The position numbers were made by a program, and so were the translations under genes. DNA of 56,388 nucleotides from Xylographa opegraphella (taxonomy: Eukaryota): contig JALDZX010000089.1 of the NCBI GenBank assembly GCA_022813865.1, forward strand, positions 1-56,388, in the 5' to 3' direction. The notes below the pieces were generated by a model. It did no database searches, was not told the origin of the DNA, and saw only the letters and a program-made list of their open reading frames with translations. Numbering within the stretch: position 1 is the stretch's first letter; the number at the start of each line of letters is the position of its first letter. Positions 2,890 to 9,662 of the stretch are shown in pieces.

Positions 2890-3713
2890 ATGTTTCGTGT
2901 GAAATATTCTCGTACTGTAAATGTACGGAGACCACACATATGTACCATTGTTTCCAGAAGATCTGCATCGGCAGTTCACACTCCCAGAAAATCAGGTATG
3001 GCGCCCTGTGCGATACTGAGACAAGCCTGCTTATAGCTCCGCCAGGATACCCCGAGCATCTTCTGATCTATCATGCTGGTATCGGACGCACTGTATTCCT
3101 CGGATGTACCAAGATCACAACACTCTTTCTCTTCGCGTTCTCATCCCTCTTCATCGCCCCGACGTACTATTTTGCGCCTAGCGAGCCTGATTGGGCCGCA
3201 GCAGCAAGTGGGTCAACGATCTTTTAGTCAGCGTATCAAGCGTTTCTAGCTGACCAACCTTCAGTTGTTGTCGGAGGCGCCATCCCCCTCCTCTTTGTAG
3301 GATATACGACCAAGCCTTTTGTCAACTATGTTCATATTCGGTTGCCTGTCTTTGCGAGGCAGTCTCACGAGCATCTAATCAAGTGGTCCAAGAACATAGC
3401 ACCCCAGACTGAAATTGACATGACCACTATGCGTTTATATGGCTTACCTCGTGTCAGTCGAATGCAAATAGCAGAGCTCCACGAGACGAAGAGGAGTACT
3501 CTGAGTGTGGCTAACCTGGTACGTATTCCTGCCCACGAAGACTCCGCGGAGAAGAGACCTTGGTGGGTGGGGAAAGGAGTTACTCGCTTCTTTGTTGGGA
3601 CCTCGGAGCGTGGGGCCAGAGAGCTTGCTATTTGGCCCAGCGTTCTCGAAGCGATTCGATCTCGTAAGGGTGCTGGTTGGGAAAGATTAGACAGGCGAGT
3701 CACTTCCAGATAG
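2890..3713 (+). CDS. Conserved hypothetical membrane protein, probably mitochondrial (3 exons)
   Basis: Exons 2890-2995, 3037-3207 and 3265-3713 splice in frame (introns GTATGG..TAG and GTGGGT..CTGAC..CAG). The N-terminus is Arg/Ser-rich and free of acidic residues (MFRVKYSRTVNVRR), like a presequence. YPEHLLIYHAG is followed by two hydrophobic segments. An alternative in-frame ATG lies at 2866. Confidence 0.7.
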
Positions 3714-4140
3714 TCAATATTTACCTAGGTTTTCAGGTCTATTTTCCAAATGCAGTTCGTGTCTCATGTGAGCGTACACAAAGCAATGTTTGTTTATTGG
3801 TACTATCTTCCAACTGCCTTACTTTTATCGTGCTTGCCATCGACCGCTGTTAAGGTTTCCTGTAAAGCCTATTCAACCATTTAAGAAACTTGCCTGTTCA
3901 ACTATAATCTCTATTTTGCAGCACATGGATAGAACTATTCGCTGTCAACTGCCGATATTATTGCGTCAAAGCGCAATCCCTCGAACTTTGATCTGTCGTC
4001 CCACAAATCAACATGCCAAGCCGTTCCAGCCACCTCGCCAAAACCCGAAGCACAGCCATTAGGTTTATCTTAGCCCCACTGAGCGACAAAATAACACGAG
4101 TCGTGGGCTTTTGGCTTTCCTCTCGTGAGGTCTGAGAGCG

Positions 4141-4260
4141 ACATCTGTGATCCACATCTGTGATCCACATGTGGCTCAGGGTGCTCGTAGATTTGTATAA
4201 GAAAGCCTTCGTTCCCACTCCTCTCTCTCTTTCCCTTCCTCCACCACCCACACCTCCAAT
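4141..4260 (+). promoter_or_regulatory. Putative Pol II core promoter upstream of the repeat locus
   Basis: A perfect 13-bp direct repeat (ACATCTGTGATCC)x2 lies at 4141-4166, TATAA at 4196-4200, then a CT-rich tract (about 4206-4260) typical of fungal transcription start regions. Confidence 0.4.
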
Positions 4261-4271
4261 CTCAAAATTGA

Positions 4272-4500
4272 GTCTTCCCACACCAATCCGGCTATCCCCA
4301 CACAGCTAATCGGTTACTAGAACTACAACTACCCTCATCTACCATCTCAAAGCTGGTCTTCCTATACCTATCTGGCCATCCCCACTTAGCTAATGGGTTA
4401 CTAGCACTACAGCTACCCTCATCTACCATCTCAAAGCTGGGTCTTCCCACAACAATTCGGTCATTCCCACTCAGCTAATCGGACACTAGGACTACAGCTA
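4272..4500. repeat. Tandem array A: about 3 copies of an 84-85 bp unit
   Basis: GTCTTCC starts at 4272, 4356 and 4441. Each unit contains CAGCTAATCGGTTACTAG-like and ACTACARCTAC motifs; CCCTCATCTACCATCTCAAAGCTG is present in the first two units. Confidence 0.9.
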
Positions 4501-4579
4501 CATTTCCCTCTCTGGCCTGGACTTATACCTCCTTGGACCTGGACTCGAAACTCCCTCAACCTGAACTGGACCCTCCTGT

Positions 4580-5150
4580 GACCTGGACTGGGACCTCTCT
4601 GGATTGGAGCCCGACTTTGTTTCCTTGGACTGTACTGTCAGGCTCTGGACTGGAACCCCCATTGACCTGGATTGGGACCTCCCTGGATTGGAGCTTGACT
4701 TTGTTTCCTCGGACTATACCTGCAGGCTCTGGACCGGAACCTCCTTTGACCTGGATCGGGACCTCCCTGGATTAGAGCTCGACTTTGTTTCCTTGGACTG
4801 TACCGTCAGGCTCTCTCTGGACCGGAGATTTCATTGACTTGGATCGGGACCTCCTTGGATTGGAGCTTGACTTGGTTTCCTTAGACTGTACCTTCAGGCT
4901 TTGGGCTGGACCCCACCCCACTGACCTGGACTGGGACCTCCCTGGATTGGAGCTTGACTTTGTTTCCTTGGACTATCCCTGCAGGCTTTGGATTGTACCT
5001 CCAGACTCTGGACTGCACCTTCAGACTCGACTCTGGACTGGAACCGCCATTGACCTGAATCGGGACCTCCCTGGATTGGAGCTCGACTTTATTTCTTTGG
5101 ACTGTACCTTCAGGCTTTGGGCTGGATCCCCCTTCGACCTGGATGGGACC
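4580..5150. repeat. Tandem array B: about 7 copies of an 84 bp unit
   Basis: GACCTGGAYTGGGACCTCCCTGGATTGGAGCTYGACTTTGTTTCCTTGGACTRTAC-like units start at 4580, 4664, 4748, 4836, 4923, 5052 and 5136. Spacings are 84, 84, 88, 87, 129 and 84. Confidence 0.95.
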
Positions 5151-5204
5151 TCACTGCGCCTTACGGATAACGGACCACTCTCTTCTCCGCCTGGAACCGG
5201 ACCA

Positions 5205-5962
5205 AGATCAATCAAAGCAGTGGTGTCTTAAAGCTCAATTAATCAACTCAAGCAGGTAAGCTATAACGTGTCCTCGTTCTAAATCTTAATACTAATTCGT
5301 CTTTGCAGTTTGGTTAACTAGAAGGCCAATCAATGCGGGGGTGTCTTGAGGCTCAACTAACCAACTTAAACAAGTAAGCTATCCCAACCCCTTCCCCTAA
5401 ATTTCCGAATGCTGGCACTGACTCAATTTGAAAGTTTTGTGTTCCAGTTGGAAGTTAGGGATTGAAATCAATCAAAGCGGTGGTGTCTTGAGGCTTGAAG
5501 ATCCAACTTAAACAGGTAAGCTTTCCTCCCCCCCTTCCAGTTTCCAAATTATAGCACTAATTTCAACTTGAAAGATATGTTTTCCAGTTGGAACTTGCGG
5601 TCTCAAGTCAATCAAAGTGGTGGTGCCTTGAGGCTTGAAAACCCAACTTGAACAAGTAAGCCATAGCAATCTCTCCTATTCTTAAGTCCAGTACTAACAC
5701 AATTGAAGTATTGTTTTCCAGTTGGAGTTCAAAGTTAATCGAAGCGGTGGTGTCTTGAGGCTTGGAACCAACTTAAACAAGTAAGCTATTGTAATTTCTC
5801 CCATTCTAGATTCTAGCACTAACTTAACTTAGGTATTGTTTTTCAGTTGGAGTCTAAAATTAATCAAAGCGGTGGTGCCTTGAAGCTCGGAAAACCAACT
5901 TGAATAAGTAAGCTATAGCAAGCCCTCCCATTATAGATCCTGCCACTAACTCGCCTTTGCAG
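5205..5962 (+). repeat. Tandem array C: six duplicated exon-intron units (about 118-142 bp period)
   Basis: Donors GTAAGC occur at 5256, 5374, 5516, 5656, 5781 and 5908. Each is followed by a CTRAY branch site and an AG (5308, 5434, 5574, 5708, 5832, 5962). Each is preceded by the conserved block AATCAAAGCGGTGGTGTCTTGAGGCT..CCAACTTAAACAA. Confidence 0.9.
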
Positions 5963-7030
5963 CTTGGTTTACCATTCGAAGATTGGCTGGGGAGTTCCGG
6001 AATTGGTTTCCGGAGTTTACTAAGCGATGAAAAACTCTTTTGCTGACTTCCACGTACATGGACACGCCTATTTCTGTGGGTGTAGACATATATTTGTTGC
6101 TTTGGTTTAATGCTTGGCTATTTTTCTTTTCTTTACTCAGATCTAGGGAGTTCAGGGAGATTGGTTGCAGATATACAAGAAGGATAGGCTATTGAGAGAG
6201 CATACTTGAAGAATAGAATAAAAGGCGAGCAGATGGCTGAAGACCAAGATATTGTGAGAGGTATGGTGACACGGTACGTGATCGGGCGACCGCACGGAGC
6301 AATAATCAGAGTTCTATGCCAACGATTCGGTCTCTCACTGAGCGAACCAAAGGGGCAGGTGAGCGCACGACCTCCAGGAACCACATACATGGGGAATTAT
6401 ACTAACAATTGGCGATGGGACATCTGAGTAACAGCGAAAGAATGGACGGAAGGCGGGCGGGATATCGCACAGGTGATGGCTGAGACGTGCATCTACTTTT
6501 TGGGCTGTGCAGATGCGCGGTTTTGTTTTGCTTCCTGTCTGGCTGGGGCGCATTTTGGGGTCTGGGGAGTTTGGGGGACTGGGGAATGAGGATTTGGTGC
6601 TTAGTCGGTGGTTAGGAAAGCCAAGGGGAGATGCGAAAGGGGAACACGGGGACGGGAACTGAGGAAGGAACCAGGAGAGGGGATTAGAGTGGGAAACAGA
6701 GCCATGGGAGAAGTTCTTCAAGCACAGCAGCTCTGCGATTGTTTGTGAAATCCCAGGAGACCATCGTCGTATGAGCGTAAAGTTTTCTAGGCACTTGATC
6801 AAGAAATCATCCAAGCAATAAATAATCGAGTTCCCATATTTATGCACTCATCCATGCCGCACCCAGATAATCAACTAAGCCCTCGCAACGCTATACGTAG
6901 AGTCATGAGAAGAAGAAAATACAGAAAACCAAACTCCCCTCTTGTTCTCCCCGCGGCCCGATCTCCACTCATCAACAACCAGCAGTCCCTCCCACCCCTC
7001 TCAACACCTCCGCACGCCCACTCCCCACCC

Positions 7031-9662
7031 TCAAACATCCTTCACGAACCCCACCTCGACCAACTGGTCCGGATTAATCTTCATACTCGCCATCTTGCTC
7101 CGTGTATTATCCCGCAGCCACAAAAACGCATTCAGCACCACCCGCCGTCCAATCTCCGTCCGCCGCTTGATGCGCATCTGCTCCTTGCCCATGATATACA
7201 TGACCTGCGTCTCGTACGCGCGTTGCACGTCCGCTAAGCGGGCCGCGACGCCATCCTCGACGGTCGTGTCGCTCGACTTTGACGAGGACGCGCCGTCGGG
7301 CGCTTTCTCCGACGCCGTGGCCACGAGTGGGGTGCGGCTTTCGCGGATGATGAAGTCGCGGAGTTGCTCGAGCACCAGGAGGCCGAGGTCCTCGGTGACG
7401 ACCTCGTCGGTGTAGCCGTGGCGGATAATTAGGCGGAAGCAGTTGGGGATCGTGGTGCGTGTGACGGTATAGCGGTTCTCGGGCGAGACGGAGGGGGTGG
7501 AGAGTGGACGCAGGTGGAAGAAGACCATGAGGTCGGGGGTGGCGAGAAATTTGCATAGGAACTGGATGAAGACGGTGGGGGTCATGTCGCCGGCTTTATC
7601 GAAGAAGATGCCGAAGCCTATTGGAGAGGTCAGTATTCTTCGATGAAATCGAAAGTGGAATAAATACCCCTGATGTGGGTCACACGGTTGCCGCCAAAGG
7701 CGCTGGTCAGCTCCAGCTGTCCGTCAGCACCCGTGGTGACGAGGTGGGAGGGCTGGAACCGGTCGGATGCCTCGGCCGCCCATTGCTCCTCTTTGCCGAA
7801 GCGCCAGAGAATGAATATGCTGGAAAGGACGACTGCAAGAGCGAGAGTGAACCAGGCACCTTGAGGTACTTTCAAGAGTACGGAAGAGAGGTAGGCACCG
7901 TCAAGGGAGCCGAAAACGAGGAAACCGAAGAGGACGAGAAAGGGATTCAGGCGCCAGACAAGAAGCGCGACGAGGGCGACCATACATGTCGTGATGAACG
8001 TAACGAGTATGACACAAACTCCATACGCATTTCCCAACGAAGTGGTCTACGATCCGAGGTCAGTGACGAGGGTTCTTGAACATCGGATATAGGAAAGCCT
8101 ACATTATTGTAAACAGCGGTAACAATGACTGTTCCAACCATGAGAAGCCAGTTCGCAAACGGAATATACACTTGTCCATGGAAGATCTTTGATGTATGGA
8201 CCATTTTAATTTGAGGGAAATAAGATAGTTTCATAATTTGAGAAAGTAGCTTGTGAAGTTAGCTAAGACTGCTAACAAGTACCTTGTGAGACATCTTACC
8301 TGGAAAGTAGAGGTAATCATGGCCTGGGAGGCGACTATAGCAGCCAAAATAGCAACGACAAGACTTGGGTACAGCATTCCTGGAGGCACGGAGTTAAAGA
8401 AAGGATTCGAGTAGGCTGCAGGATGAACGCTTATGTAGGCCGCCTGTCCAATATAGGCCAACAGCAAACTTGGAAAGGTAAAGCAAATCCAACTGAGCTG
8501 TATTGCTCTCATACTGAAGGCTCCAAGGTCGGCGAACAAGGCTTCCACTCCCGTGAACGCAAGTAGGATTCCGCCAAGCGACTTCCAGCCGTCAGTTCGA
8601 TTCCGAACCAGATAAGCTCCTGCAAAGTAAGGCGAAAATGCCTTCAAAACTGAGTGGTCGTACCAAACTAGGTTGTAGATCCCGAAGCTAGCGTTGAAAG
8701 ACAGCCAGATAATGACAATAGGCGCAAAGAGACTTCCAATCTTAGTTATCCCAAATGGCTGTATCAGGAACAAGAAAACAAGGATACCGCACGATGATCC
8801 AATGATGGTCGAACTCGAGATGTTTGGATTGACTACCTCGAGACCTTGGATTGCACCGAGAACTGACTGTGCGGGAGTAAGGACTCCATCAGACATGACG
8901 AGTGACACACCTAAGACGCCGGCCACCTTTAGAGCAGCTTTCCCAAAGCGACTACGCTCCAGGCCGGTTCGCACAGTGCGCTCAGATGGTTTGAGGTCGG
9001 TAGAAAGATACCGTTCCATTTTCACCATCGATTCTTCCTTAGGATCGCGCTTGGTAATATTGGCCTAATGGGATCAGCATGAACGAGGTAGTGGCCATTC
9101 TGAAGCTGCACTGACATATCTGGAAAGCAAAGTGTACAATGCAAATGTTCCTCCCTCGCCTTCGTCGTCGGCCTGTAAGACAATGAATACATACTTGACG
9201 CTAACGATCAAGGTGAGAGTCCAGATAATCAGGGAAAGTGCCCCCAGGAGATCATCGTAAGAAGGGTTATCGGTAAATGTAGAAGAGTACACATAAAGCG
9301 GCGAGGTTCCGATATCGCCATAAATAACTCCAGTTGCTTGATATGCAAGCCTATCTGGTCAGAACACATTCCGTAGCACGGTGAGCATGATTGTGTACCA
9401 TAGCAAGAGCCATCCACGGAAGATCTGGGCACAGCGTCAGCTATGATGCGTTACTTATGAGTTCAATGTTTCTGCATACTTGCTTATGTTTGATATCCCC
9501 TTCCTGTTTCAAGTTTACTCCTTCAATGTCGCCATGCTTCGTGTGATACCTTTCCCCTATGCTCGAGCTATTCGAAGCACTGCGGGTCGAGTACACCCCA
9601 CCAGGCGCAGTGTTGGGCTTGATTGGACGGATTTGATCGGCAGTAAACTGAACGGTAGACAT
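7031..9662 (-). CDS. HAK1: KUP/HAK/KT family high-affinity potassium transporter (multi-exon)
   Basis: Hallmark motifs occur across the exons: [77 protein letters not shown] and the C-terminal LVEVG. ATG is at 9662 and the stop at 7031. Confidence 0.95.

Follow-up and report, generated by a model that had tools for sequence, protein, structure and literature searches.

In protein-coding genes, tandem exon duplication copies an exon together with its flanking intron, so that every new copy comes with ready-made splice sites. Exons derived from a local repeat are also documented in the mammalian locus Firre, where the repeat (RRD) supplies 7 of the 13 human and 11 of the 23 mouse exons and serves as a protein-binding RNA localisation domain (PMC4820808, excerpted text). 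According to the same excerpt, the Firre repeat is 156 nt long, its introns measure kilobases, and both the transcript and a protein partner are experimentally known. A third kind of system is provided by the proliferating introns with terminal inverted repeats of the Hypoxylaceae and by introner-like elements, which are short, associated with inverted repeats and represented by mutually related copies. As far as the excerpt of PMC8469720 describes them, these introns are dispersed in many protein-coding genes, carry internal terminal repeats of 45–55 nt and insert seamlessly.

The locus addressed here is an array of six exon-intron units on the + strand of a 56,388-nt stretch of DNA from Xylographa opegraphella (contig JALDZX010000089.1), the whole of which is called the window below. 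Its pattern suggests the multi-intron part of a lineage-specific, spliced, non-coding + strand transcript built by tandem duplication, an explanation to which we give about an even chance. The array resembles Firre in that a single-locus repeat supplies many exons, in that exon copies are kept while introns differ, and in that a reiterated RNA domain, known in Firre, is proposed for it (PMC4820808, excerpted text). Indeed, within the window, the core repeat of the array is confined to one locus and to exons, as in a local exonic repeat. Unlike Firre, however, the array has exons of 59–81 nt and introns of 52–74 nt, is known from DNA alone, and duplicates intron and exon together as one unit of 113–141 bp. 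Its introns look like the short introns of filamentous fungi (GTAAGC, CTRAY located 9–13 nt before AG, length of 52–61 nt) but, unlike ordinary fungal introns, six of them stand head to tail in 707 bp between mutually copied non-coding mini-exons. Finally, as in tandem exon duplication, each exon was copied with its flanking intron, whereas no reading frame was kept and the variation among copies lacks a codon rhythm.

A + strand gene whose last ORF ends at 3713 and a K+ transporter gene on the - strand, ending at 7031, leave between them a gap of 3.3 kb, which contains the array. The proteins recognized by Pfam in the window comprise this transporter and TLDc, SacI-homology, N-myristoyltransferase, EF-G-type and PIP5K/FYVE proteins; in addition, an ORF at 1-960, which extends beyond the first base of the window, encodes a deaminase domain of OTT_1508-like type (Pfam E = 4e-17). 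Gene content and the style of the introns suggest a fungal chromosome with short introns, probably that of a filamentous ascomycete. The gap harbours three consecutive tandem arrays, at 4259-4501, about 4516-5160 and 5196-5962, the last of which is the six-unit array. The features of the gap, all on the + strand, are as follows.

4206..4257, + strand: pyrimidine-rich (88%) tract of 52 nt, just 3' of TATAAG at 4196-4201
4259..4501, + strand: 84-bp tandem repeat, family a, 2.9 copies (TRF)
4516..5160, + strand: 84-bp tandem repeat, family b, about 7 copies (TRF and copy alignment)
5196..5255, + strand: exon part of unit 1, first copy of the conserved core
5256..5308, + strand: candidate intron 1, 53 nt, with GTAAGC, CTAAT and CAG
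5309..5373, + strand: candidate exon 2, 65 nt, stops in every frame
5374..5434, + strand: candidate intron 2, 61 nt, or 74 nt with the alternative CAG acceptor at 5447
5435..5515, + strand: candidate exon 3, 81 nt, shortened to 68 nt by the alternative acceptor, stops in every frame
5516..5574, + strand: candidate intron 3, 59 nt, or 72 nt with the alternative acceptor at 5587
5575..5655, + strand: candidate exon 4, 81 nt, stops in every frame, the sole exon that folds by itself into a notable hairpin (z = -2.5)
5656..5708, + strand: candidate intron 4, 53 nt, or 66 nt with the alternative acceptor at 5721
5709..5780, + strand: candidate exon 5, 72 nt, one frame open
5781..5832, + strand: candidate intron 5, 52 nt, or 66 nt with the alternative acceptor at 5846
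5833..5907, + strand: candidate exon 6, 75 nt, stops in every frame
5908..5962, + strand: candidate intron 6, 55 nt, similar to intron 1 in its 3' part and in the 10 nt that follow
5963..6358, + strand: possible last or next exon of the same transcript, putatively linked to the array, with a small ORF from the ATG at 6234
6359..6428, + strand: seventh intron-like segment, 70 nt, with GTGAGC, CTAAC and AG (pattern scan)

The six units share the same succession of signals. The GTAAGC donors, at 5256, 5374, 5516, 5656, 5781 and 5908, are followed in introns 1–6 by the branch motifs CTAAT, CTGAC, CTAAT, CTAAC, CTAAC and CTAAC, whose ends lie 12, 12, 13, 10, 9 and 12 nt from the first AG, respectively. 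All six donors match the U2-type 5' splice site GTRNGY, and all six units carry CTRAY within 9–13 nt of the first AG, as in U2-type branch sites. Up to this AG, the introns measure 53, 61, 59, 53, 52 and 55 nt, and they delimit internal exons of 65, 81, 81, 72 and 75 nt. The original prediction had called these donors with their CTRAY and AG, as well as introns of 52–61 nt and the five internal exon lengths; every position was reproduced and the lengths were found again by recount. It had also reported that both 81-nt exons contain stops in all three frames, which is correct and holds for four of the five internal exons.

The 3' ends are less sharply defined than the donors. In three of the six introns the first AG is AAG, a weaker acceptor, and the exon boundaries are therefore not exactly fixed. 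Furthermore, units 2–5 contain, 13–14 nt 3' of the first AG (at 5447, 5587, 5721 and 5846), another acceptor that looks stronger and closer to consensus, TTYCAG accompanied by a pyrimidine run, which the original prediction had not mentioned. These second acceptors are possible alternative 3' splice sites, the use of which would remove most of one of the inverted-repeat arms described below. With either acceptor, the sizes (52–61 nt, or 66–74 nt with the second one) agree with the size class of the window, where the median is 60 nt for the 38 sites that match a loose intron pattern on both strands of the window. Such sites are far denser in the array, with six in a 707-bp stretch versus at most two per 2 kb elsewhere in the window. 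On these patterns, the units look like genuine short + strand spliceosomal introns, as candidates. Reading the signals on the minus strand was rejected because, judged by eye, their reverse complements are poor fits to the donor and branch consensus.

A 21-nt exon core motif, allowing up to three mismatches, has six matches in the 56,388 bases, all six located in exon parts of the array, and none in any of 100 shuffles. TRF calls the array as repeats with periods of 140 and 125, and the units, exon and intron together, measure 113–141 bp. Aligned together, the six units display a mean column identity of 72%, and the longest invariant run is GTAAGC itself. Pairwise identity is 58–78% over whole units, 52–76% in the intron part and 63–85% in the exon part.

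This divergence is unevenly distributed. Of the 12 columns that make up the donor and branch signals, 10 are invariant, compared with 5 of the 41 other ungapped intron columns (Fisher p = 8e-6), and both variable signal columns change solely within the R and the Y of CTRAY. Mean pairwise identity reaches 0.93 for the signals and 0.79 for the exon core, against 0.55 for the rest of the intron and 0.51 for the 5' part of the exon; the claim that splice signals and exon cores were kept while intron interiors diverged is thus borne out. Invariant donor and branch columns amid copies that are only 58–78% identical suggest that splicing on the + strand has been selected, and selection through most of the history of the array would be the simplest reading. 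The test counts few independent events, because the six copies are paralogues in one genome, and the MAFFT alignment tends to anchor on conserved words, which lowers the apparent identity elsewhere. The same numbers bear on a neutral explanation, in which the array would be a relic, a minisatellite-like duplication of a fragment of a dead gene or transcript that formerly contained an intron, neither spliced nor used any more, its signals remaining by survivorship or chance. In such a relic, signals should decay like their neighbours, yet they are invariant in 10 of 12 columns versus 5 of 41. On balance, we consider the relic unlikely, although part of the observations reported below would fit it.

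The array does not encode a protein, nor does it show signs of having done so; at most, a very old and decayed gene could lie behind it. When the exons were spliced in silico in 16 combinations of acceptors, the longest ORF across the array was 41 aa. The variable exon columns fall almost evenly on the three codon positions (10, 11 and 10 of 19, 19 and 20; p = 0.88). A protein-coding repeat gene, intact or recently decayed, is not supported, for lack of a continuous frame over the spliced exons and of an excess of variation at third positions. The view that the array is not a protein repeat, already expressed in the original prediction, is thus strengthened by ORFs of at most 41 aa, stops and the absence of a three-base rhythm among copies. 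In several units a stop occupies an equivalent position close to the end of the exon, and any coding phase would therefore predate the duplications. For the neutral relic, the stops in every frame are a favourable point; the lack of any three-base rhythm left from a coding past and the shared stop, which places such a past before the duplications, are unfavourable ones.

Repeat-induced mutation offers no clearer route to these stops. One index, TpA/ApT, is 1.19 in the array versus 0.69 in the whole window, with a GC content of 0.41, and the relic explanation could draw on this as a sign of some repeat-induced mutation. The second index, however, is 1.14, which is not a value typical of mutated sequence, and transitions exceed transversions only 1.55-fold; both results run against that use of the first index. 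Given the disagreement between the two indices and this ratio of transitions to transversions, repeat-induced point mutation was rejected as the source of the stops.

Searches for known families were negative over the gap. None of 10 ORFs compared with Pfam has a match below E = 0.19, and neither the 151-aa + strand ORF that runs into unit 1 nor the 79-aa downstream ORF has a homologue among proteins of near length. Rfam gave no match over 3700-7100 at E <= 1, and ARAGORN found no gene. A snoRNA host gene was considered and rejected, the introns being too short and the box motifs not being seen by eye.

Two other tandem arrays immediately precede the six units. The family a 84-bp repeat is probably part of the same repeat-rich non-coding region as the array. 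Family b includes length variants of +3, +4 and +45 nt, and its variable columns are spread over the codon positions in the proportions 10, 11 and 13 of 28 each (p = 0.71). Both 84-bp families are open for 44–151 aa in several frames on both strands, with variation among copies that lacks a codon rhythm. At 4773-4775, one 84-bp repeat copy reads TAG instead of the TGG of the other copies, and the +4 insertion occurs in a single copy. The idea that the 84-bp repeats and the array units derive from one ancestor was rejected, the local alignment score being reached by 31% to 82% of shuffles. The proximity of two other tandem arrays marks the region as prone to duplication, as the neutral relic would expect.

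Upstream of these repeats, the pyrimidine-rich tract at 4206-4257 is one of only five tracts in the window of at least 50 nt with at least 88% pyrimidine or purine. Together with TATAAG, this segment (4196-4257) might serve as a core promoter for + strand transcription beginning at the repeats. A perfect 13-bp direct repeat, in 2.3 copies, occupies 4141-4170, upstream of the CT-rich tract. The + strand is also poor in ATG, with six in the bins covering 4100-5899.

This scarcity of ATG is compatible with another function, that of a 5' leader whose repeats and introns would tune a small protein gene located downstream and starting at the ATG at 6234. The product would be 42–55 aa long, and an additional short intron would extend it to about 93 aa. 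The ORF (6234-6434), which covers 42 aa up to the donor, begins with an ATG that has A at -3 and G at +4, and is followed by a same-strand intron-like site (6359-6428). However, the small ORF has neither a Pfam match (best E = 0.19) nor a homologue, upstream ATGs remain at 5141, 6017, 6049 and 6111, and the scarcity of ATG may merely have been copied along with the repeats. We regard a 5' leader as quite improbable.

The exon ends of the array are partly complementary. In units 2–5, the 3' end of the exon, CCAACTT..AACAA, is complementary to TTGTTTTCCAGTTGG, which spans the intron end and the start of the next exon. The duplexes of these arms reach -13.5 to -14.9 kcal/mol in units 2–5, whereas those of units 1 and 6 are weak (-6.4 and -11.4); the complementarity originally described thus stands for the four inner units and is weak in the two outer ones. 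Only 1.5–3% of shuffled arms attain the energies of units 2–5, but 7–12% of arm pairs with identical geometry taken at random from genomic sequence do so. Globally, the complementarity of the exon ends is only marginally beyond controls.

Covariation did not reinforce this signal. Among the six units, RNAalifold scored the consensus at -3.5 kcal/mol for the intron-enclosing stem, in which 0 of 16 pairs are compensatory, and at -9.3 kcal/mol for the exon-enclosing stem, in which 1 of 25 is, the covariation term being a penalty in both; the RNAalifold check proposed in the original prediction was thus negative. When arms were swapped between units, pairing was not significantly weaker (permutation p = 0.075 for the intron-enclosing stem and 0.73 for the exon-enclosing stem). 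Because swapped arms pair about as well, the unit-specific matched variants reported earlier are not demonstrated, with the same p values of 0.075 and 0.73 against them.

The folds differ between the precursor and the spliced form. The unspliced array is no more structured than shuffles (z = +0.86), intron-centred segments range from z = +0.5 to -1.2, and single exons from z = 0.0 to -2.5. The earlier suggestion of a hairpin precursor of the milRNA or siRNA type finds no backing here, as the unspliced folds do not exceed controls and the stems show almost no compensatory changes (0 of 16 and 1 of 25 pairs). After splicing, the fold reaches z = -3.0 with the first AG and z = -2.0 with the second acceptor, and hairpins are predicted at junctions 2–5, with energies between -9.1 and -11.3 kcal/mol and z scores between -2.5 and -3.8, whereas units 1 and 6 have none. 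As these four hairpins share one ancestral unit, their signal amounts to roughly one event with p ~0.01. The perfect palindrome announced across spliced junction 4 is real and spans 12 nt. The related proposal of hairpins that form after splicing accordingly keeps part of its ground (z = -3.0 for the spliced array, hairpins at junctions 2–5) and lacks the rest, no covariation being seen. It is the sole structural idea with some support.

Two explanations would give these structures a role. In the first, the array would be a hairpin device, in which the junction hairpins feed a Dicer-type pathway or pairing drives exon skipping or back-splicing into circles. The contrast between spliced and unspliced folds (z = -3.0 vs +0.86), the energies and z scores of junctions 2–5, and the rarity of shuffles (1.5–3%) that match the arm duplexes of units 2–5 would all agree with it. 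However, compensatory pairs number 0 of 16 and 1 of 25 with both covariation terms positive, matched arms do no better than swapped ones (p = 0.075 and 0.73), 7–12% of random genomic arm pairs equal the duplex energy, and units 1 and 6 form no hairpin. Moreover, the stems consist of segments of 4–6 bp with internal loops, unlike typical small-RNA precursors, and use of the second acceptor removes most of one arm. Such a device is, in our view, very unlikely.

The second explanation, which we rate as a long shot, is that the functional elements are absent from both DNA and precursor and would be built by splicing itself, which would join complementary exon ends into the junction hairpins when introns 2–5 are excised with the first AG as acceptor. 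The resulting row of stem-loops could be readable by a Dicer-type factor or another double-strand-binding factor. The second acceptor, 13–14 nt downstream, would cancel the hairpin, which would amount to a splice switch between structured and unstructured forms.

The history of the array was approached through related loci, six of which were fetched via the C-terminus of the K+ transporter. Comparison of 3714-7031 with these six loci by blastn returned chance matches only, of at most 22 nt. On the closest syntenic one, the metagenome contig L001 (1521-8645), the pair formed by TLDc and the K+ transporter is kept, with 71% and 61–77% protein identity. Downstream of its transporter, L001 has neither the array nor a tandem repeat, and the content there differs. 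The repeat-bearing gap is therefore not conserved at the distance of L001, and any function of the array would be young or dispensable, since L001 lacks it. The absence from this syntenic contig is also what the neutral relic would lead one to expect.

Within the window, the array unit has no other copy, and a degenerate pattern spanning two units has no match in the metagenome contigs. The 3' part of intron 1 with the next 10 nt is similar to that of intron 6, which fits internal amplification of a single unit. The exon cores between introns are homologous too, which indicates that the whole unit was duplicated and not the intron alone. In our reading of these comparisons, the array is lineage-specific and arose by local tandem duplication. 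Among the matches listed in the literature search, no title corresponded to a fungal tandem repeat with splice sites in each repeat.

A mobile origin of the intron was also envisaged, in the form of an introner- or MITE-like module with short terminal inverted repeats that inserted once and was then amplified in tandem with its flank. The arms do flank each intron, with CCAACTT..AACAA on the donor side and TTGTTTTCCAGTTGG on the acceptor side, and terminal inverted repeats have been described for introns that proliferate in fungi (PMC8469720, excerpted text). The array thus shares with the Hypoxylaceae introns its short, mutually related, inverted-repeat-associated copies. In contrast with them, it is strictly tandem, its exons are duplicated too, and its arms, partly exonic, measure 13–15 nt versus 45–55 nt in the excerpt of PMC8469720. 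Furthermore, a mobile module agrees poorly with the lack of another copy in the 56-kb window and of any metagenome match to the two-unit pattern, with homologous exon cores that imply duplication of the whole unit, and with the fact that a target-site duplication was not seen by eye. We judge this origin, which the original prediction had also raised and which finds no support within the window, highly improbable.

The array holds more than chance would give, and a spliced non-coding transcript is a reasonable reading of it. Under this preferred explanation, one unit composed of an exon and a short intron would have been tandemly duplicated five times, long ago, and selection would keep in each copy the GTAAGC donor, the CTRAY branch motif, a nearby AG and an exon core of about 50 nt. 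Transcription would start near 4260, by the CT-rich tract, and run through the ATG-poor repeats, after which the spliceosome would remove six spacers of 52–74 nt; both steps are deduced from DNA alone. The mature RNA would consist of five or six closely spaced, conserved exon modules, which might act as a multivalent platform for an RNA-binding factor. Neither a motif of known meaning nor a binding partner was identified for the exon core. Wherever the first AG is used, each junction would in addition close a short hairpin.

The significance of the locus depends on the existence of this transcript. If there is none, the array is merely part of a repeat-prone intergenic stretch and of little interest. 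If the transcript exists, it would be a compact natural example of a non-coding RNA that grew through repeated copying, in tandem, of an entire exon-intron unit, and its six copies in 770 bp would have diverged enough to reveal the bases that selection keeps. To date, most work on reiterated exon modules in non-coding RNAs has concerned large mammalian loci. The array of X. opegraphella, if correctly interpreted, would offer a small and tractable fungal model for such modules, and also a model for the upkeep of splice signals where there is no reading frame to protect.
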